Origin: Scenedesmus sp. PABB004
Taxonomy: Eukaryota
NCBI GenBank assembly: GCA_014905635.1
Contig: JABVCE010000002.1
Coordinates: forward strand, 2,046,001-2,110,000
Length of the DNA stretch: 64,000 nt
Direction: 5' to 3'
A model generated the notes under the pieces. The model did no database searches and had not been told where the DNA came from. It worked only from the letters and a program-made list of their open reading frames with translations. Shown in pieces: positions 1,076 to 64,000 of the stretch (within the stretch, counting starts at the first letter, position 1; every line of letters begins with the position of its first letter). Position numbers and translations under genes: made by a program.

Positions 1076-4021
<2,946 letters not shown>

Positions 4022-16902: not shown

Positions 16903-22306
<5,404 letters not shown>

Positions 22307-36300: not shown

Positions 36301-39300
36301 CCCCGGCTTCTCGGCGCAGTGCGTGAACAACGCCAGCGCAGCGACCGGCAGCTGGACGCTGAGCGGCGCGTGCGAGCGTGAGTGCGCCTGCGCCGCGGCG
36401 CGGCGGCGGCCCTCCCGCTCTAGCCCGGGCGGGCGGCCTCGGCGCTGCCATGCCGCGGCACCCTCACCGCTCGACTGCCGCTCGCCTGGCGCCTCCCGCA
36501 GTCAAGCGCTGCGCTGGCCTGCCCAGCATGACTGGCGTGACGCTTGCCAACAGCACGTGGAGCGCAAACTGCACCGCCAACGCCACGCACGGCAGCAGCT
36601 GCAGCCTCAGCTGCGGCTCGTCCGCCACCGGCGGCTACACCGCGACATGCAGCCAGACCAGCTGGCAGGTGTCCGGAGCGTGCGCACGTGAGCCTGCGGC
36701 GCGGGGGGGGGGGGGGGGGGGCGCTAGCCGGCGGGGCGGCGGGGCCTGCTGCGGCCGTTGGGCGTCGTCGCCCGCTGAACTGCTGCCGTGCTGCTGCGCC
36801 GCTCTCGCAGTCAAGCGCTGCGCGGGGCTGCCGCCGGCCAACCTCACCAACATCCAGCCCAGCGGCTGGAGCACGGCCTGCGCCAATGCCGAGCATGGCG
36901 CCGAGTGCTTCACGGGCTGCTCCACCATTGCCACGGGCGGCTACAGCTCGACGTGCTTTGAGGGCGCCTGGGTCGTGAGCCCCAACGCCACCTGCGCACG
37001 TGGGTGGCGGCCACGCAGGCTGCGCCCCCCAGCCCCGCACTGTGGCCGGCCGCGCTGGCGGCGCTGCCGTGGCTGCCGTGCCGCGAGCGGCCCGCGGCAG
37101 CCGGCTGCCAGGTCTACTCACCGCGCCGCTGCTGCCCCGACGCAGTCAAGACGTGCTTCGGCCTGCCGGCGACTACGACGCTGATGGCCACAGACTGGAC
37201 CGACACCAACTGCTCAGCCAACGTGCCGCACGGCACCCTCTGCGGCATGGCGTGCGCGCCGAGCGCGACCGGCAGCATCTCTGCCCTGTGCTCACAGGGC
37301 GCGTGGGCAGTGTCCAACACCTGCAGGCTCAAGCAGTGCCCGGGCCTGCCGCCCGCCAACCTGGCCAGCATCGACGCCGCCGGCTGGCCCGCCAGCTGCG
37401 CCAACGCGACCCACGGCGCCGCCTGCAGTGCCAACTGCTCGGCCAACGCCACGGGCGGGTACTCCGCAACCTGCTTCGAGGGCGCCTGGCGCGTGGCCAA
37501 CACCACGACCTGCGAGCGTGAGTGCACGCGCCGCGCCACGCGGGCCCGCCCGGCGCGTGTCGCGTGTTGCACGCGCTGCCGGCGGCAAGCCGCGCCCCTC
37601 TGCCGCTGGCTGACCCTGCTGTTGCTGCTCCTGCCGCTGCCGCTGCGCGTGTGCTTGCAGTGCGGCGGTGCACGGGGCTTCCCCCGAGCCAGGCGCTGGC
37701 TGACAGCGCCTGGAACGCCAGCTGCGCCGGGGCGACGCATGGCAGTACGTGCTCCCTGGCCTGCAGCTCGGCTGCGACGGGCATCTACACCGCTGCCTGC
37801 AGCGCTGGCAACTGGACTCTGACGAGCACGTGCCAGCGTGAGTGGCTGAGGCAGAGGAGCAGCCAGCGCTTGGCTGCCCCGCAGTGGGCGCAGGCCGTCG
37901 CCCACCCGCTACGCCCGCTCTCGCAGTCAAGCGCTGCACGGGGCTGCCGCCGGCCAACCTGACCCTGATCCAACCGAGCGGCTGGAACGCCAGCTGCGCC
38001 AACACCACGCACGGCAGCAGCTGCAGCGCTGGCTGCTCCTCTCTCGCCACGGGCGGCTACACCGCAACGTGCTTTGAGGGCGCCTGGATCGTGAGCCCCA
38101 ACGCCACCTGCGAGTGTGAGTGGTCGCTGCTGCTGCGGCTCATCCATGCTGCTGGCCGCGGCGTGCAGCAAGCAGCTGCTGCGACTGACGCGCTCAACCC
38201 ATGCGCGGCCGCCCGCCCTCGCAGTCAAGCGCTGTGTGGGACAGCCGACCGCCAACCTGACCAATGCTCTCGCCAGCGGCTGGAGCGCAGACTGCACCAA
38301 CGCGACACACGGCAGCAACTGCACCCTCGACTGCGCGTCATCGGCGACCGGCGGCTACACCGCGACATGCAGCCAGACCAGCTGGCAGGTGTCCGGAGCG
38401 TGCGCACGTGAGCCTGCGGCGCGGGGGGGGGGGGGGGGGGCGCTAGCCGGCGGGGCGGCGGGGTCTGGTGCGGCCGTTGGGCGTCGTCGCCCGCTGAGCT
38501 GCTGCCGTGCTGCCGCGCCACTCTCGCAGTCAAGCGCTGCGCGGGGCTGCCGCCGGCCAACCTGACCAACATCCAGCCCAGCGGCTGGAACGCGAGCTGC
38601 GCCAACGCCACGCACGGCAGCAGCTGCAGCACTGCCTGCTCCTCCGTTGCCACGGGCGGCTACAGCGCGACGTGCTTCGAGGGCGCCTGGGTCGTGAGCC
38701 CCAACGCCACCTGCGAGTGTGAGTGCCCGGCTGCTGCCGAAGCCATGCTGCTGGCCGCGGCGCGCTAGGACTGCAGCAAGCAGCTGCTGCAACTGACGCG
38801 CTCGACTGGCGGTCGCCCGCCCTCGCAGTCAAGCGCTGCGCGGGGCTGCCGACCACCACCAACCTGACCAACGCTCTCGCCGGCGGCTGGAGCGCAAACT
38901 GCACCAACGCAACGCACGGCAGCAACTGCACCCTCGACTGCGCGCAGAACTCCATCGGACTCTACACAGCGAGCTGCGTGGGGGGCACCTGGAGCGTCAC
39001 CGGCACGTGCCAGCGTGAGTTGTGGGCGCTGGCTTCGGGCGCGGCGCGAACCCGCGGCGCCGCGCGCTGGGCGCGCGCTGACCCGGCGACCGCCTGCCGC
39101 CCGCTGGCCGCCCTGCCCGCGCGCGCGCGCAGTGCGGCGCTGCGTCGGCGCGCCTACGGCCAGCCAGCCGCTCCTCACCGTGTCCAACTGGGCCGCCAAC
39201 TGCACCAACGCCACGGCGGGCAGCACCTGCAGCATCGCCTGCGCGGCCGCCAACGCGACCGGCCCCGGCTACGCTGCTTCCTGCGTCGACGGCAACTGGG

Positions 39301-43751: not shown

Positions 43752-45604
43752 ATGGACGAGCCGCAGCGCCCGCCGCCGGCGCCGCCGGTGCAGCCGCTGC
43801 TGCCCTTTGACGACCCCTGGTCGCTGCGCACGCGGCCCTGCTCGTTCGAAGTGCGGCGCCCCGGGCCAGCCGCGGCGGCAGCGACGGCGCGAGCAGCGGC
43901 GAGCCCGGCGGCCCTGCCGCGCGGAGCTCGGCGCACCGCGTGCGCGCCGCAGGACCTCGTGACTGCGGGCGAGGTGGTCTCGCTCAACCACATTCGCGAC
44001 ATGTCGGGCCAGAGAAACGTCAGCCTCGTGCGCGAGGGCACCAAGTTTGGCTGCGCGCCGGACCAGGTCGCGGGGTGAGCCGGCGCGGCGCGGCGGTCGC
44101 CGCCGCCGCCGGCTGTGCGCGGGCGCCGCGCGGCCACACAGCCGCGGCGGCGACGGCGCGCAGGTTCAAAAAGTACCTGTCGAACGTCGCCACGCTCATT
44201 GAGCAGGAGGGCGACCGCTTTGACCTGGCGTTCGAGTGGACCAGCCCGCTCAGCGGCCGCCCCGGGCGCTTCTTCCAGCTCCACGGCCTGCGCAAGGAGG
44301 CGGCCATGGTGCGGCGCGCGGCGCACTGGGCTGCCGCGCCGCGCGCGGCAGCCCCCCGCAGCCCGCCGCCGCCGACCGCCGCCGGCCGCCGCCTCGGCAG
44401 GCGACGAGCCTGTACGCCGCGCTGCTGCGCCAGCTCGCGCACCAGGGCGTGGCCGACCTGCTCGGCCTCAGCCCCGGCAGCACCGCGCTGCCGCCGGGCG
44501 GCGACGCGGCCGCGGCGGCGCTCGCGGCGGCGGTCGCGCAGCTGCGCGGCGCGGCGGGCGTGTACGAGCACCTCGCCGAGAGTGTGCTGCCGCCGCTGTT
44601 CGCCGAGCTCAAGGGCGACAGGCGCGCAGCGCCGCGCGGCGTGCACGCCGCGGCGCCGGCGTCTGGCGCGCGGGCGCGCTCGCCGCCGCCCAGCCCGCTC
44701 GCCTGCCCCGCCCGCCTACGGCCGCACGCCCACGGCCACGCACCCGCCGCGCCGCGCCCGCGCCAGGCCCGGCGAGATCATGGCGCGCCTCGCCACGGCG
44801 ATGGCGCAGCTCTGCCTCGCCGAGGCGCAGGCGCTGACCGCGTTCCGCGCCGGCGCGCGCGCCGGCAGCAGCGCGCCCGTGGTCGCGAGCCTCCACGTGG
44901 GCGCGGCGGAGCTCTACGAAAGGGGCGTGAAGACGATCCGAGATTACATCGGTGCGCGCCCGCGCCGCGCGGGCTGGCGGCGCCCCAGCCCGCGGTGGTG
45001 GCACGCAGCAGCGGCGGCCCGGCGCGCCGCCGCCGCCGCCGCCACACCCACCGCGACCGCCGCTTCGACCGCCGCGCGGCCGCGCAGGTGACTACACCAT
45101 CGCGTCGGACCGGCTGCGCCGCTACTTGGCCATTGGGGCGAGCCTCGCCACAGCGCGCGCGCACAAGGCGCGCGCAGCGCCCGCCTCGACCGCCGCGCGC
45201 GCCCGCCCGCGCGCGCGTCAGCCGGCCGGCGCCGCCGTCCGCGCGCCGAGCTCGCCGCCCGACCGCGCGCCGCGCAGGTGATGGCGGGCGAGCACCACGC
45301 GCAGCTGCAGGCCGGCGCCGCCGAGCGCGCGTGCGCCGAGGCGCAGGCGCTGCTCGCGACATGCATGTCGGCTGCCGACTGCGATGCGGCGTGGCGCGGC
45401 GTGCTGTCCGCGGAGCTGGCTGAGGTCGAGCGCATCAAGAAGCCGATCGAGAGCGATCGCCTCGTTGTGTACTGCCAGCCGCTGCCGCGCGAGGCGCCGG
45501 CGCTGCCGGCGGGCAAGGTGCTCGTGTCGCCGCTCGCCTACCAGCCCGAGCGCCTGCCCTCCACGGCGGGCGAGCTGGCGGGCGCCGCCGCCGCGCACTC
45601 GTGA
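43752..45604 (+). CDS. BRO1-like domain protein (BROX/plant endosomal-targeting type)
   Basis: FEWTSPLSG, QLRGAAGVYEHL, D|RPGE, LCLAEAQA and C-terminal VVYCQPLP...PAGK fit the BRO1 pattern. Confidence 0.75.
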
Positions 45605-46076
45605 GCCCTGCGGCGTGAGCCCTTCTGTTTATCTGCGGCAGTCAATCGTGCGTGCCACCGATCGCGAGGGCCTGACCCACCGATCAGCCCCCGCGCTGCA
45701 GCCCCCGCGCCCCTGCGTCCAGCGCCCGCGGGGGCAGGGCGGCCGCGGCCGCCGGGCCGCGGCCTCGCCCGCCGCGCCCCCGCTCGCGGCCCGCTCGCCC
45801 CGGAGGGAGAGGGACAGCCCCAAGACCCAGCCTGACGCCGCTCCGCCGCCGCGCCCGGGCCCGGGGCGCGCGGGGGCGGCCGCCGATCAATCGCAGCAGG
45901 CCCCGGCGCCCTCCCGCGCTCCCTGCGGCTCCCTGCGGGCGGGCGATCCGCCCCGGCGCCCTAGCCAACGATAGTGCGTGCGTGGGCGGCGTGGCACGCG
46001 GTCGCGTGGCGTGTGCGGCCGCCGGCGGTCGCCGGCGGCTCGCGGCGGCTGCTGCTGCTGCTGCGGCCGCGCCGCG

Positions 46077-46161
46077 GGGGCTGATGAGAAACACACACCA
46101 CAGACCTGTTCTGACAGGGTCTCAACCCATGTAGAGACTGTTCATGCACCACTCTGACCCC
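46077..46161 (+). ncRNA. C/D-box snoRNA, predicted double guide for 18S rRNA (sites equivalent to yeast Gm1428 and Gm1271)
   Basis: Terminal GGGG/CCCC stem; C box TGATGA 46082-46087. D' CTGA 46111-46114 is preceded by CACAGACCTGTT (antisense to 18S AACAGGUCUGUG). D CTGA 46154-46157 is preceded by CATGCACCACT (antisense to 18S GUGGUGCAUG). Target numbering is from recalled yeast 18S sequence plus the D+5 rule. Confidence 0.88.
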
Positions 46162-46222
46162 AGAGGCGCGCGCTGCGTGCCGTTGCGTGTGCGCGGGCGT
46201 GCGGGCGCGCTCGCGCGACAAG

Positions 46223-46302
46223 AGGCCGGTGACGACACCTTATCCCAACAGGTTCAGATCCCCCGTGATCGACAACACAACATGCACCACTATCCGAGGC
46301 CT
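46223..46302 (+). ncRNA. C/D-box snoRNA, U33/snR55-like (18S site equivalent to yeast Um1269)
   Basis: Terminal AGGCC/GGCCT stem; variant C box GTGACGA 46229-46235; variant D box CCGA 46294-46297 preceded by CATGCACCACTAT. The D+5 rule points to the U in GGUGGUGCAUG. Confidence 0.78.
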
Positions 46303-46479
46303 GCTGCCCCGTTGTTGTTGTTGCCGCGCGCGCGTGGAGGCTGCCCGCCGCAAAGCGTCGCGCGCCGGCGTCTCACCCGCCGCCCGCCGCCGCCCCGCAG
46401 GCCCACACCGGCCGCGCGCGTCGGCACGAGACGCCGCCGACGCGCCCCGCTGCCGCCGCGACTCCAGCAGAGGTGAGCG

Positions 46480-46775
46480 CAGCACGGAGGGCCACTCCGG
46501 TGGACAGATCGGCAGCCGACGCTCCCCCCGCCCCATGGCGGGGGCCCCACAAGCAGCGCGGCGGGCGCAGCAGCAACCGCGATGGAGACCCACCGGGCGA
46601 AAGTCCCCGGGAAATGAGGCAGAGAGTGCCAGCCCTAGCAGGCAGGACCCCCTCGCGCGGCTCGACCTGAGCGGCCTTGGGGCAGCTGACCGTAGCAACA
46701 GTTATGTGTGCCAGCGGGGGCCGGGGCCCCGGCCCCGCGCCCCCCGCGAACTCAACGGGGCTTACTCCCGTGCTG
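46480..46775 (+). ncRNA. RNase MRP RNA
   Basis: CR-I GAAAGTCCCC 46599-46608 and CR-V ACTCAACGGGGCTTACT 46750-46766 form the P4 pseudoknot. P8 hairpin GGCAGAGAGTGCC 46618-46630 has the MRP-type GAGAG loop. CR-IV-like ACAGTTA at 46698-46704. P3 base CCGGTGG/CCACCGG. P1 CAGCACGGAG (46480-46489) pairs with CTCCCGTGCTG (46765-46775). Confidence 0.92.
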
Positions 46776-46836
46776 ACGCCACCTGCGGGCGCCGCCGCCA
46801 CGTGCCGCCGCGCCCGCAGAGCCAGCGGCGCGACGA

Positions 46837-46899
46837 GCCAACTGACGAGTCCACTGAGCACGGACGAAACCCCGCCCCAATGCGAGCGGCGGTCTTGGC
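46837..46899 (+). ncRNA. Type I hammerhead ribozyme; predicted cleavage after GUC at 46894
   Basis: Stem I GCCAA (46837-41)/TTGGC (46895-99); core CTGACGA 46842-48; stem II GTCC/GGAC with a 9-nt loop; GAAA 46866-69; stem III ACCCCGC pairing with GCGGCGGT (one bulged C); GTC triplet 46892-94. Confidence 0.88.
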
Positions 46900-47029
46900 A
46901 AGCTCATCATCATCATCATCAGCAGCAGCAGCAGCAGGCGCAGGGGCAGCGTGTGCGTGGGCCCGCGGGCGGAGCGCCGCGCGGCGGGCTGCGCGTGGAG
47001 GTCGCAGGCCGGACGTGGACGCAGGCGTG

Positions 47030-47034
47030 TGTAA
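47030..47034 (+). terminator. Putative green-algal polyadenylation signal TGTAA for the ncRNA host transcript
   Basis: TGTAA is the known chlorophyte poly(A) signal. It lies about 135 nt downstream of the hammerhead site. Confidence 0.45.
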
Positions 47035-47068
47035 CACGTGCTTGCCCTCCGCGCGCGCTGACCCGGGG

Positions 47069-50000
47069 TCAGGGCATCTCGTCCCGCAGCGCGCGCTGGC
47101 CCGTGAGCTGCGCCACGTGCCCGCGCAGCGTGAGCTGTGGCCCCGCCGCCGGCCCGCGCGCGCCGCCGGGCGGCTGGAAGCGGGCCCGCCCGCCGCGCGC
47201 GGCGCGCCCGCCGGCGAGCCGCGCCGCCTCGGCCGCCGCCGCAGCGCGCTCCTCTGCCTCGTCGCGCTGGTTGGCCTCCAGCACGAGCGCCTTGATGGCC
47301 GATCGCTCGGCCGCCTCGCTGCGCTGCTTGGCCATCAGCCGCACCGCCATTGCCGCGTCGGCCGGCACCTGCAGCCAGCGGGAGGTGTAGCGGCGGCGGC
47401 GGCGGAGCGCGGTCGGCGAGCGGTCGACCGCGGCGCGCGGCGGGCGGCGCTGCGGCGCGGCGGGGCGGCGGCGCGCGCACGTGGATCTCGCGCGAGCGGT
47501 CGTCCTTGCCGCCGCGCCGCATCAGCAGCTTGAAGGTGATTGCGCCGCCGCCCTCGCCCTCGCCGTCCCCGCCGTACGACGGCCCGGCGGTGTGCAGCTG
47601 CAGCTGCGGCTGCTGCTGCGGCCGCAGCTGCTCCGGCGGCGCCGCAGCCGCGGCCTCGCCGCTGCTGCTCGCGGCCGCCGCCGCGGCCGGCGCGCCGGCC
47701 GCTGCCGACGGCGCCGCGGCTCGGCCCTGGCACTCCTGCGGGCGGCGGCGCGGCGGGCGGGCGGGCTGTCAGGTGGCGCCGCGGGCGCGGGGCGCCGCGC
47801 CGCCAGCCCTCGGCCGCTTGCTCCCACCGTCCCGAACCGCGGCGCGGCGCCGCGCCCGCTCCGCGCCGCGGGCGCGGCCCACCTGCAGCAGCGCCGCGTA
47901 CTCCGCCTCAAACTCGGCGTCCGCCTCGCCGCCGGCGCCGCGGTCGTACGCGTCGCCGTCGTCGTCGTCGCTGCTGCCGCCGCCGCCGCCGCCGCCGCTG
48001 CCGCCGCCACCCGAACCGCCGCCGCCGGCGCCGCCGCGGGCGGCGTCGTCAGACTCCGACTCTTCGTCGTCGTCCTCATCAATCGGCGCCAGCCCGCTCG
48101 CGCTCGCGGCCGCCTCCTTGGCCAGCAGCGCGCCCACCGCCGTCGCCGCGTCGGCGTAGCTCGCAAACCGCGGCAGCCCCGGCCGCAGCTGGTCGTACGT
48201 GTCCTGAATGGCGGCGTGGGCGGGGCGGGCGTGCACGCGCGCGTGGGCGCGCGGCGCGCCGGTCGCCGCGGCCGACCCTCCGCCCACCGCATGCGCGGCG
48301 GTCGCGCGCGCGCGCGCGCGCCCCGCGCAGCCCCGCGCCTGCAGGTCCGCGTCCACGTCGAGCGGCAGCGGCTGCTTGGCCAGCACGTACGCCTGCGCGC
48401 GCGCGTGCGCGAGCCGTCGGCGCGGGGGCGCGCGGCGCGCGGAGGACGGCCGCGCGCGGCGGGCCCGCGCCGCGCGGACGGCGCCCGCCCGCTGCCGCGC
48501 CGCACAGCCGCGGTGCCAGCCCGCCGCCGCCGCCGCACAGCCGCGGTGCCAGCCCGCTGCCGCGCGCAGCCTGCGCCCACCTGCATGAAGACCAGGAAGC
48601 GGTCCAGGCGGCGCCGCGCGGCGCCCTTGGAAAAGTACGACCCGCACGTCGCCAGCAGCGCGATCACCTGGCGCCGCGGCGGCGCGTGCGCTCGAGCGCT
48701 CGGGGCCCGAGCGGCCGCGCACAAAAGCGGCGGCGGCGCCGCGCCGCGGCGCCGCCGCCGCCGCCGTCGTGCCCTCTCGCCCGCCGCCGCCGCGCGCCGC
48801 CGCGACCGCACGCACCAGGCGCACGCGGAAAAAGTCGTCGGGCGGGTCCAGGCGGAGCGCGGCCTCCTCGCTCTCGTGGCCGTGGCCGATGAGGAGGTAC
48901 AGCACGTCAAACACGGCCCTGGAGTCCAGCAGCATGTAGTTGTAGCACTCGCCCAGCAGCCGCACCTGTGCGCCGCGCGGCGGCGGGGCACAGCGGCCGG
49001 CGCCGGGGTGGGCGGGGCGGCGGGCGGCGCCGCATGCCCCGCGGGGCGCGCGCCGCGCGCGCCGCGCGCCTGCGCGAGGCGCTGCTGGTAGTTGCCGGCG
49101 GCGGGGTGGTCCAGCCCCCAGCGCACGTCCTCGAGCGCCAGGTCGACCAGGGCGACGCCGAGGCTGTCGTGGTACTGCGCGAGCCCGCCGGCGAGCGAGG
49201 CGACGAGCCCGATGTGCGACACGCGCAGCCGCGACACCTGCGCGCGCGTCGCGGGCGGCGGCGGCGGCCTCGGCGGCGGCGGCGGGCGCGACGGCCTCGG
49301 CGGCGCGGCCGGGCGGCGGCGCGCAGGGCTTGCTCGGTCTGCACGAAGGCGTTCCGACGGCGGCGGCGGCGGCGGTGCTGCTGGCTCGCGCCTTGAGCAG
49401 GCACTTGAGCAGGTAGGGCTCCGCCTCGGCCCATGGCAGCTTGAGGAGCTTCTTGAGCACCACCACGACTGCGCCGTCGGCGAGGCGGTCAAAGACCAGG
49501 TGCCGCACGTACTCCTGCACGCACACAGCGGGCGTGGAGATGTGAGTGTGTGCGCGTGTGTGTGTGTGTGTGTGGGTGTGGGTGGGTGGGTGGAGGGGGG
49601 GGGGCTGAGTGCGCGCTGATCGCGCATCGAGCGGGCGCTGCGCGCGGCGCGCGGCGCGCGCGCCTGCATCGGCGGCCGGCGGCGGCGCTGCGTGGCCTTG
49701 TCGGGCGGGCGGCAGGCGTAGTAGGCGCTGTCGACGGCGTTGCTCTGCCGGCTGTCGAGGTTGCGCGCGTTGCGCAGCCGCATCATCACCGCCAGCAGGT
49801 TCTCCATGCGCACGCGCGACTCTGTGGCGCGGCGGGGCGGTTCGAGCCCGTGGGTCAGCGGCGTCGAGCGCGCGCGCGCGCCACCGCCGGTGGGGCCGCC
49901 CCGCGGCGCGCGGCCCGCCCGGCGGCGCACCCGGCAGGCGCAGCAGGAAGCGGCCCGCGCTCTCCACGAGCGCCGCGGCGGCGTCGACCGCGGGGCCGCT

Positions 50001-55312: not shown

Positions 55313-56348
55313 TCAGCGCGCGCGCTGCGGGGTCCACGGAAGCTGTGGCGCCAGCTGCTGCTGCTGCCGCAGAGGCGGGCCGGGCGAGCCGCCAGGCAGC
55401 ACGCTGCTAAACATCAGGTGCTGCGCGGGCACGCCCAGCGGCGGCGGCGGCGGCGCCGGCGGGGGCTCCGGCAGCAAGCCCAGCTGCTGCCCCTGCCGCT
55501 CCTGCTGCTGCGCCCACGGCTGCTGCAGCGTCGCCTGCGCGCCGCTCGCCGCCGCTTGGACCCGCGCCTGCTGCGGCTGCTGTGGCTGCTGCGGCTGCTG
55601 CTGCTGCTGCGACTCCTGCTGCTCCTGCAGCTGCAGGTGCGGCTGTTGCTGCTGCTCCAGCGCCCGCGCGCCCCGCTCCCGCTCCGGCGGCTTGCCCCGC
55701 CGCGGCCGCTCGGCTCGCCGCGGCTCGGCCTCCAGCAGCTGCTGCTCCTGCAGCGCCAGCTCCTCCAGAGCGGCGGCGTCCAGCGGCGCCTGCGGCGCGT
55801 CCTGCGCGGCCGCGACCGCGGCCGCGGCCTGCAGGGCCGCCGCGGCGCGCGCGCCCTCGCGCGAGGGCGGCGCGCCGCGCGGCGCCGCCAGCGCCGCGCA
55901 CAGCGACGCCAGCAATTGCTGTGAGAGCGGCGCGGGGAGGGGCGGGGAACGGCGGTGAGCGGGCTGCGGCGCGCGAGCGCCGGCGGCAGCAGTGGCGGCG
56001 GCGGCGGCGGCGGCGCGCCGCCACGGGCCGCACCTGGGAGCCAATCTGCTGCCCGCCGGCAAGCGTGCCGCTGCGACGCGCCACCTCCGCCACGGGGAGG
56101 CCAGGCTCGGCCAGCAGCGCGCGCGTGGGCGACCACGGCGCGGCCTCGAACGCCGGCCGCACGGGCCGGACCGGCGCGCCGCTGGGCGCGGGCGAGCGGG
56201 CGGGATTTCCCTGCAGCTGCGCGCTGGGCGGGCCACTGGGCGGCTGCGGTGGCGCAATGGCGGGCTGAGACGGCGGGCCTCTGCTGCTGCCCGCCCGCCG
56301 CGGCAGCACCGGCCGCTGCGGCGGTCCGGGCAGCGGCAGGGACGCCAT
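55313..56348 (-). CDS. Hypothetical Pro/Gln-rich protein
   Basis: ATG at 56348. A plausible GT-AG intron at ~55920-56033 joins ...QQIGSQ to QLLASLCAAL..., followed by a poly-Q region. No family recognised. Confidence 0.45.
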
Positions 56349-63955: not shown

Positions 63956-64000
63956 GGGGACATAGCTCAATTGGTAGAGCGCTCGCTTTGCATGCGAGAG
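63956..64000 (+). tRNA. trnA-UGC: tRNA-Ala (anticodon UGC), truncated by the window end
   Basis: GGGGACATAGCTCAATTGGTAGAGCGCTCGCTTTGCATGCGAGAG shows the acceptor 5' strand, D-arm/A box and anticodon arm CTCGC-TTTGCAT-GCGAG. AT-rich upstream region at 63830-63890. Confidence 0.95.

Follow-up and report, generated by a model that had tools for sequence, protein, structure and literature searches.

Outside amniotes, the type I hammerhead ribozymes of eukaryotes have been tied to mobile elements (PMC4918200, PMC4209133, PMC6155905, PMC8557442), and reports place them in retrozymes, satellites and Penelope-like elements (PLEs) (PMC4918200, PMC4209133, PMC6155905). The chlorophycean green alga Chlamydomonas reinhardtii is described as carrying 24 type I hammerheads and six retrozyme-like units of ~2,000 nt, in which the ribozyme recurs in tandem or direct-repeat copies (PMC4918200, PMC5680766). 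The PLE hammerheads of fungi and protists are likewise reported as type I; their helix III is large, tertiary contacts between helices I and II are not recognisable, and they lie in the terminal repeats of elements that encode a reverse transcriptase (RT) and are often telomere-associated (PMC4209133). Metazoan hammerheads of retrozymes and PLEs have a helix III of 1–2 bp and work as dimers (PMC4209133). In amniotes, single type I motifs reside in host transcription units, namely in introns of RECK, CTCL and DTNB and in the 3′ UTR of Clec2; they are conserved in many species and are thought to derive from the hammerheads of retroelements (PMC6155905).

We analysed a 64,000-nt stretch of the nuclear genome of the green alga Scenedesmus sp. 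PABB004 (contig JABVCE010000002.1, positions 2,046,001 to 2,110,000; hereafter the window), in which the original prediction, made from the letters alone, had placed a complete type I hammerhead at 46837–46899. The published genome measures 39.8 Mb, has a GC content of 78.5% and contains 1.31% repeats (PMC12571836); GC in the window ranges from 74 to 82%. All invariant hammerhead core bases are present in the motif (C3, U4, G5, A6, N7, G8 and A9; G12, A13 and A14; the A15.1–U16.1 pair; and an H, not G, at position 17). Helix I is open-ended, as the type I permutation demands, and the three helices comprise 5, 4 and 3 + 4 bp. Helix III begins with an A-U pair (A46869–U46893) followed by two C-G pairs and the bulged C46890. 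Standard numbering assigns C17 to position 46894, in agreement with the cut that had been predicted after this nucleotide. A search of both strands with our own descriptors returned this motif as the sole type I match in the 64 kb, as the earlier statement that there is no second copy had it, and no type II or type III hammerhead. Its core strand, CUGACGA, is one of 14 CTGANGA sites on the two strands. The parts of the motif and the features around it are listed in Table 1.

Table 1 Features of the hammerhead locus, given as positions in the window.
Feature	Position	Strand	Remarks
C/D box snoRNA A, SNORD33-like	46074–46163	+	RF00133, 26.3 bits, below the gathering score of 44
C/D box snoRNA B, SNORD33-like	46222–46303	+	RF00133, 41.2 bits, below the gathering score of 44
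RNase MRP RNA gene	46473–46777	+	5′ end approximate (46473–46485); Rfam RF00030 match at 46551–46777
Spacer between MRP RNA and hammerhead	46778–46836	+	59 nt, 85% GC; holds a hairpin at 46783–46819
Type I hammerhead motif, whole	46837–46899	+	63 nt; complete core, three helices
Helix I, 5′ strand GCCAA (positions 2.5–2.1)	46837–46841	+	Pairs with 46895–46899
Core strand CUGACGA (C3–A9)	46842–46848	+	
Helix II hairpin	46849–46865	+	GUCC (46849–52), 9-nt loop ACUGAGCAC, GGAC (46862–65); stem is the upper-case Rfam consensus
Core GAA (G12 A13 A14)	46866–46868	+	
Helix III hairpin, A15.1 to U16.1	46869–46893	+	3 bp, bulged C46890, 4 bp, 10-nt loop
C17	46894	+	Predicted self-cleavage between 46894 and 46895 (standard hammerhead numbering)
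Helix I, 3′ strand UUGGC (positions 1.1–1.5)	46895–46899	+	5 bp with GCCAA
(CAT)5(CAG)6 microsatellite	46905–46937	+	Starts 6 nt after the hammerhead; complementary to (CTG)n at 46042–46063
Last coding ORF of convergent UPF2	47069–47521	−	Stop codon 47069–47071; Pfam Upf2, 27.7 bits

The Rfam family Hammerhead_1 (RF00163) aligns end to end over 46836–46900 with each upper-case consensus position matched. Family and motif share a complete core, the type I topology, the GUCC/GGAC helix II, the C15.2–G16.2 pair and the GUC triplet. The alignment scores 16.3 bits, below the gathering score of 34, and has an E value of 0.22 for the 181 nt searched. Relative to the model, the motif carries insertions in loop II (9 nt versus 6) and in helix III (21 nt versus 4), to which most of the low score can probably be attributed. 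As a calibration, we scored 20 phage type I motifs whose helix III spans 22–27 nt. Two reach 34 bits, and the scores read off the table for those under the cutoff run from 16.9 to 32.2 bits. Because 18 of these 20 long-helix-III members fail too, failing the Rfam cutoff is weak evidence against membership; at 16.3 bits, the motif nonetheless stands at the bottom of the phage score range, and this counts against it.

Phage and prophage loci also provided a positive control for our descriptors. Among 125 such loci in IMG/VR that contain the canonical core string, the descriptors classify 121, of which 115 are type I and six are type III, and place four in neither class. The window motif has the identical CUGACGAGUCC...GGACGAAAC core, and its 5-bp helix I and 25-nt helix III span fall within the values typical of the phage type I motifs (4–6 bp and 12–27 nt, respectively). 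It differs from them in its location in a eukaryotic nuclear genome, in the bulge that interrupts helix III, and in a 9-nt loop II that is longer than that of 113 of the 115 phage motifs, only two of which have loops of at least 8 nt.

Could a hammerhead-like string of this kind arise without shared ancestry or activity? The E value, extended to the whole window and all families, would lie far above 1, and very many windows were scanned. GC-rich DNA pairs readily, and the window contains 188 short-loop inverted repeats. For the isolated 63-mer, the fold of lowest energy is the hammerhead (−17.4 kcal/mol), but this fold is no more stable than those of shuffled sequences (z = −0.17; 78 of 200 shuffles fold at least as well). 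All of these observations favour a chance match. We estimated its frequency in 1.09 Gb of first-order Markov sequence with the composition of the window (11% A, 11% T). With helices I, II and III of at least 4, 3 and 2 bp, respectively, ten motifs occurred, equivalent to ~1e-3 per window and ~0.7 per 39.8-Mb genome, and this relaxed descriptor likewise leaves room for coincidence. Motifs as good as the observed one (at least 5, 4 and 3 bp) occurred only once, or ~1e-4 per window and ~0.07 per genome, and the string that combines the consensus core with helix II (CUGACGAGUCC-N4-14-GGACGAAAC) has an expectation of 4e-7 per window and 2.6e-4 per 39.8-Mb genome. These two rates argue against chance, as do the 121 of 125 viral loci in which the same string forms part of a complete hammerhead under our descriptors, and the position of the motif, which lies on the same strand as the window's only ncRNA cluster and less than 60 nt from its end. 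We consider a chance match highly improbable. Judged by its sequence, 46837–46899 is probably a genuine type I hammerhead; the core, the helices and the chance estimates all support what had been predicted, while the Rfam gathering score is not reached.

The prospects for cleavage are more mixed. In the presence of flanking sequence, the hammerhead fold lies 2.4–4.8 kcal/mol above the minimum and accounts for an ensemble share of 2e-4 to 8e-3, which counts against a cutting role. The 96-nt stretch that includes the flanks (z = +0.69) likewise has no thermodynamic support. Folding during transcription would be compatible with more stable competing folds in these models, yet is unsupported by them. 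Hammerhead activity at cellular Mg2+ requires loop II to contact helix I at a loop or bulge. In the motif, no loop of helix I that could make this contact is evident, which also counts against a cutting role. The sole candidate is a 14/2-nt internal loop closed by four base pairs between GAGC (46819–22) and GCUC (46902–05). These had been put forward as an extension of helix I. The pairing does exist, but with 4 bp across a 14/2-nt loop, and forming only within a non-hammerhead fold of the 96-mer, it makes a weak extension. Helix III, by contrast, speaks for the role: at 3 + 4 bp it is long enough for cleavage as a monomer, whereas its metazoan counterparts work as dimers. The hammerhead has a GC content of 67%, the snoRNAs 56–57%, the MRP RNA 73% and the spacers 79–85%, so that in composition the motif looks like the neighbouring constrained RNAs rather than the spacers. 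All seven A/U positions of the core are intact despite the 78% GC of the genome. Together, the intact A/U-rich core and the RNA-like GC content argue for recency or selection of the hammerhead.

A different history would make the motif a lone remnant or passenger of a mobile element (a heavily 5′-truncated PLE, a retrozyme-like unit or similar) that landed in a microsatellite beside the snoRNA–MRP cluster, has no host role and is perhaps inactive by now. The published distribution of eukaryotic type I hammerheads fits this history, and the Chlamydomonas motifs place them in a chlorophycean alga. The fungal and protist PLE hammerheads resemble the window motif in their type I topology, large helix III and lack of recognisable tertiary contacts (PMC4209133). 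PLE hammerheads are reported near the 3′ end of the element, and PLEs are said to prefer microsatellite targets (PMC8557442); here, (CAT)5(CAG)6 begins 6 nt after the motif. The absence of the hammerhead from related MRP loci, described below, points in the same direction.

The remainder of an element is nevertheless hard to find. At most about 120 nt separate the MRP RNA from the microsatellite, and no other element sequence is visible there. [quoted passage not shown] The window contains one copy in 64 kb, unlike the tandem or direct-repeat copies of Chlamydomonas as published, and none of the eight direct-repeat families in 45900–47200 includes a repeat of the hammerhead, as expected from the earlier remark that no tandem repeat was seen. 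A PLE is recognised by an ORF for an RT, with or without a GIY-YIG domain, and by hammerheads in pseudo-LTRs. Pfam detected neither domain in the 60 ORFs with coding-like GC3 that were scanned out of 370 of at least 120 aa, nor among the 15 ORFs around the hammerhead. For these 60 ORFs, the earlier observation that the window has no RT ORF stands, and in this the locus differs from the RT-encoding elements of fungi and protists. The PLEs described from green algae (Chlamys), those of Sphaeropleales among them, are reported to be without canonical hammerheads, bar two subclades in Chara and spike mosses (PMC8557442). The low repeat content of the genome and the recency or selection implied by the core and its composition also weigh against an element relic. 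On balance, we regard an origin as a mobile-element passenger with no host role as possible, though somewhat doubtful.

The hammerhead trails a cluster of small RNA genes. The order on the + strand is snoRNA A, snoRNA B, MRP RNA, hammerhead and (CAT)5(CAG)6, with the MRP RNA as the last gene of the snoRNA cluster, a point missing from the original prediction. A whole-window Rfam scan (E ≤ 1) identifies this as the only ncRNA cluster and finds no other ribozyme; at gathering thresholds, Rfam reports only the MRP RNA and a tRNA cut by the window end. The MRP RNA scores 53.4 bits with RF00030, above the cutoff of 50, has the conserved CR-I and CR-V elements and ends at about 46775–46777. The 59-nt spacer that follows places the motif ~60 nt downstream, as originally described. 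Exact RNA contigs from three metatranscriptome runs cover the MRP RNA over 46485–46643 and 46641–46775; contigs of two studies start at 46485, and a third contig spans 46641–46775. Positions 46467–46502 are 92% identical to the metagenome loci L044 and L027, and CAGCACGG (46481–88), read from the sequence, is able to pair with CCGUGCUG (46768–75). The 5′ start of the MRP RNA is probably at about 46473–46485, upstream of the start of the Rfam match at 46551. Of 21 public runs listed for the site, none contains half of the sampled sequence words. The four of these runs that we mapped contain parts of the MRP RNA only, and their zero depth over 46808–46951 is uninformative on expression or cleavage. 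One RNA contig in run X3 (depth 2.7) joins 46775 back to 46473 with two other letters between, which may reflect misassembly or else an RNA in head-to-tail or circular form.

On the + strand, no TTTT occurs between 43513 and 54222, and no TATA-like element was seen by eye upstream of the MRP RNA. Processing from a common precursor is known for snoRNA clusters of plants and algae. Since the MRP RNA closes a snoRNA cluster, a processing role for the hammerhead is plausible.

To place the cluster among its relatives, we used an MRP-anchored pattern representing the conserved MRP core, which yielded 73 metagenome loci and no match in prokaryote genome contigs. The closest locus is 77% identical to the window's MRP RNA over 191 nt. 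An Rfam scan of the 14 most similar of the 73 loci showed that L044 and L027 each carry a SNORD33-like snoRNA on the MRP strand, ~245 nt ahead of the MRP RNA; in L007, two other snoRNAs lie upstream, also on that strand. In L044, the snoRNA upstream of MRP (1118–1199) matches snoRNA B at 58 of 80 aligned bases, and the one downstream (about 1832–1928) matches snoRNA A at 66 of 87. The guide stretches are kept between the window snoRNAs and these orthologues, and the order differs: B-MRP-A in L044 versus A-B-MRP-hammerhead in the window. From these sequences, the MRP RNA seems to lie within a snoRNA-type cluster in more than one lineage, a layout that suggests, by analogy, processing of the MRP RNA from a common precursor.

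The hammerhead is not part of what these loci share. It is found downstream of the MRP match in none of the 73 metagenome loci, which also lack type II and type III matches; L069 has one loose type I match, on the strand opposite MRP. The post-MRP spacer of the related cluster in L044 lacks the motif, which puts the hammerhead outside the shared cluster layout. Given its absence from L044 and the other MRP loci, any role would be specific to the lineage of the window.

The same search returned four loci, L031, L046, L052 and L070, with two or three MRP core matches on one strand, ~460–580 nt apart. In L031, three complete MRP RNA genes are recognised by Rfam. The four loci resemble tandem arrays of the gene, present in some uncultured eukaryotes.

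Downstream of the hammerhead, the transcript of the cluster would run toward UPF2, which is encoded on the opposite strand and has a MIF4G match (32.1 bits) further upstream on that strand. Its stop codon lies 174 nt beyond the predicted cut. The upstream neighbour on the + strand has a weak BRO1-like match (18.2 bits, under the cutoff) and an ORF at 45092–45604 with coding-like GC3. Between about 45900 and 47000, codon-position GC gives no coding signal. We examined two further elements near the motif as candidate signals and rejected both: the hairpin in the 59-nt spacer as a dedicated processing signal, which is unremarkable among 188 comparable inverted repeats in the window, and TGTAA at 47030 (+) as a poly(A) signal, which is uninformative with nine sites against 3.6 expected.

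Repeats also flank the locus. The (CTG)n tract before the first snoRNA and the (CAG)n tract at 46920–46941 after the hammerhead are 91–95% complementary over 20–22 nt and would bracket the whole cluster in a + strand transcript. Both are common microsatellites, and coincidence is possible. Elsewhere in the window, ARAGORN calls an 88-nt tRNA-Cys at 37969–38056 (−) that the Rfam tRNA model does not match at the gathering threshold or at E ≤ 1; it looks like ordinary GC-rich DNA, and the call is probably false. Rfam also gives matches below threshold to mir-3533 (3381–3464, +; 57.2 bits versus 104) and isrG (20524–20603 and 55560–55638, +; 24–27 bits versus 100), the first isrG match overlapping an inverted repeat of CTG repeats; these are probably artefacts of repetitive DNA rich in GC. 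Of the tRNA gene cut by the window end, only the 5′ part falls inside the window (63956–64000, +); it scores 34.7 bits and has T runs 90–180 nt upstream.

We propose that the hammerhead may cut the transcript of the cluster that it trails. In such a scheme, snoRNA A, snoRNA B and the MRP RNA would be made as one + strand precursor, and if they are, transcription has to continue into the hammerhead. Within that RNA, the 63 nt of the motif would fold and self-cleave after C46894. Self-cleavage would set the 3′ end of the precursor at a constant position, 117 nt past the MRP RNA, and would sever any read-through RNA before its antisense run into UPF2. The mature MRP 3′ end would be reached as cellular nucleases shorten the trailer. 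Because the polymerase would pass the mature 3′ end, an active hammerhead at this site must act on the cluster trailer, whatever its origin. The motif may derive from a mobile element, and the proposal concerns only its action on the cluster transcript. What we infer beyond the motif itself, its fit to the family, its improbability and the layout of the locus is transcription across the motif, its cleavage and a benefit to the cell.

The steps of this proposal differ in how probable they are. As far as the sequence goes, we put the chances as roughly even that the motif is genuine and cuts the cluster transcript; that it was selected or co-opted as the built-in 3′-end maker of a polycistronic snoRNA–snoRNA–MRP RNA precursor we consider unlikely, if still worth stating. 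Hammerhead cleavage leaves a 2′,3′-cyclic phosphate and a 5′-OH, and such ends are poor substrates for 3′ trimming by the exosome and for the Xrn2/Rat1 “torpedo”. These awkward product ends count against a role in trimming or termination.

Among described hammerheads, the co-opted amniote motifs offer a parallel as single type I motifs in a host transcription unit. Their hosts are protein-coding genes, in which they occupy introns or 3′ UTRs, and they are conserved in many species, whereas the window motif trails a snoRNA/MRP cluster. In the titles and abstract openings returned by our literature searches, we found no natural hammerhead in 3′-end formation of a non-coding RNA, and no relevant paper that places one next to RNase MRP or within a snoRNA cluster, or that describes one as a natural terminator. 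Within that literature, the Scenedesmus hammerhead is a further member of a known family in a setting, behind the MRP RNA at the end of a snoRNA cluster, that we did not find described.

An MRP RNA gene that lies among snoRNA genes, and whose strand is free of TTTT for several kilobases to either side, bears on the biogenesis of MRP RNA in green algae. Nearly all hammerheads in eukaryotic genomes belong to mobile elements, with a few co-opted ones in animal introns and 3′ UTRs, and the hammerhead described here would, if functional, represent a new use of this ribozyme. If it has been co-opted as a 3′-end maker, the gene of one ribozyme would have behind it a second ribozyme, which cuts the transcript free and keeps read-through out of the convergent UPF2, in a green alga with few repeats. 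If single-copy, a monomer-type hammerhead on a snoRNA/MRP trailer would provide a simple test case for self-cleavage used by a host, the use in view being to set the 3′ end of an RNA at a point of gene convergence within a compact genome.
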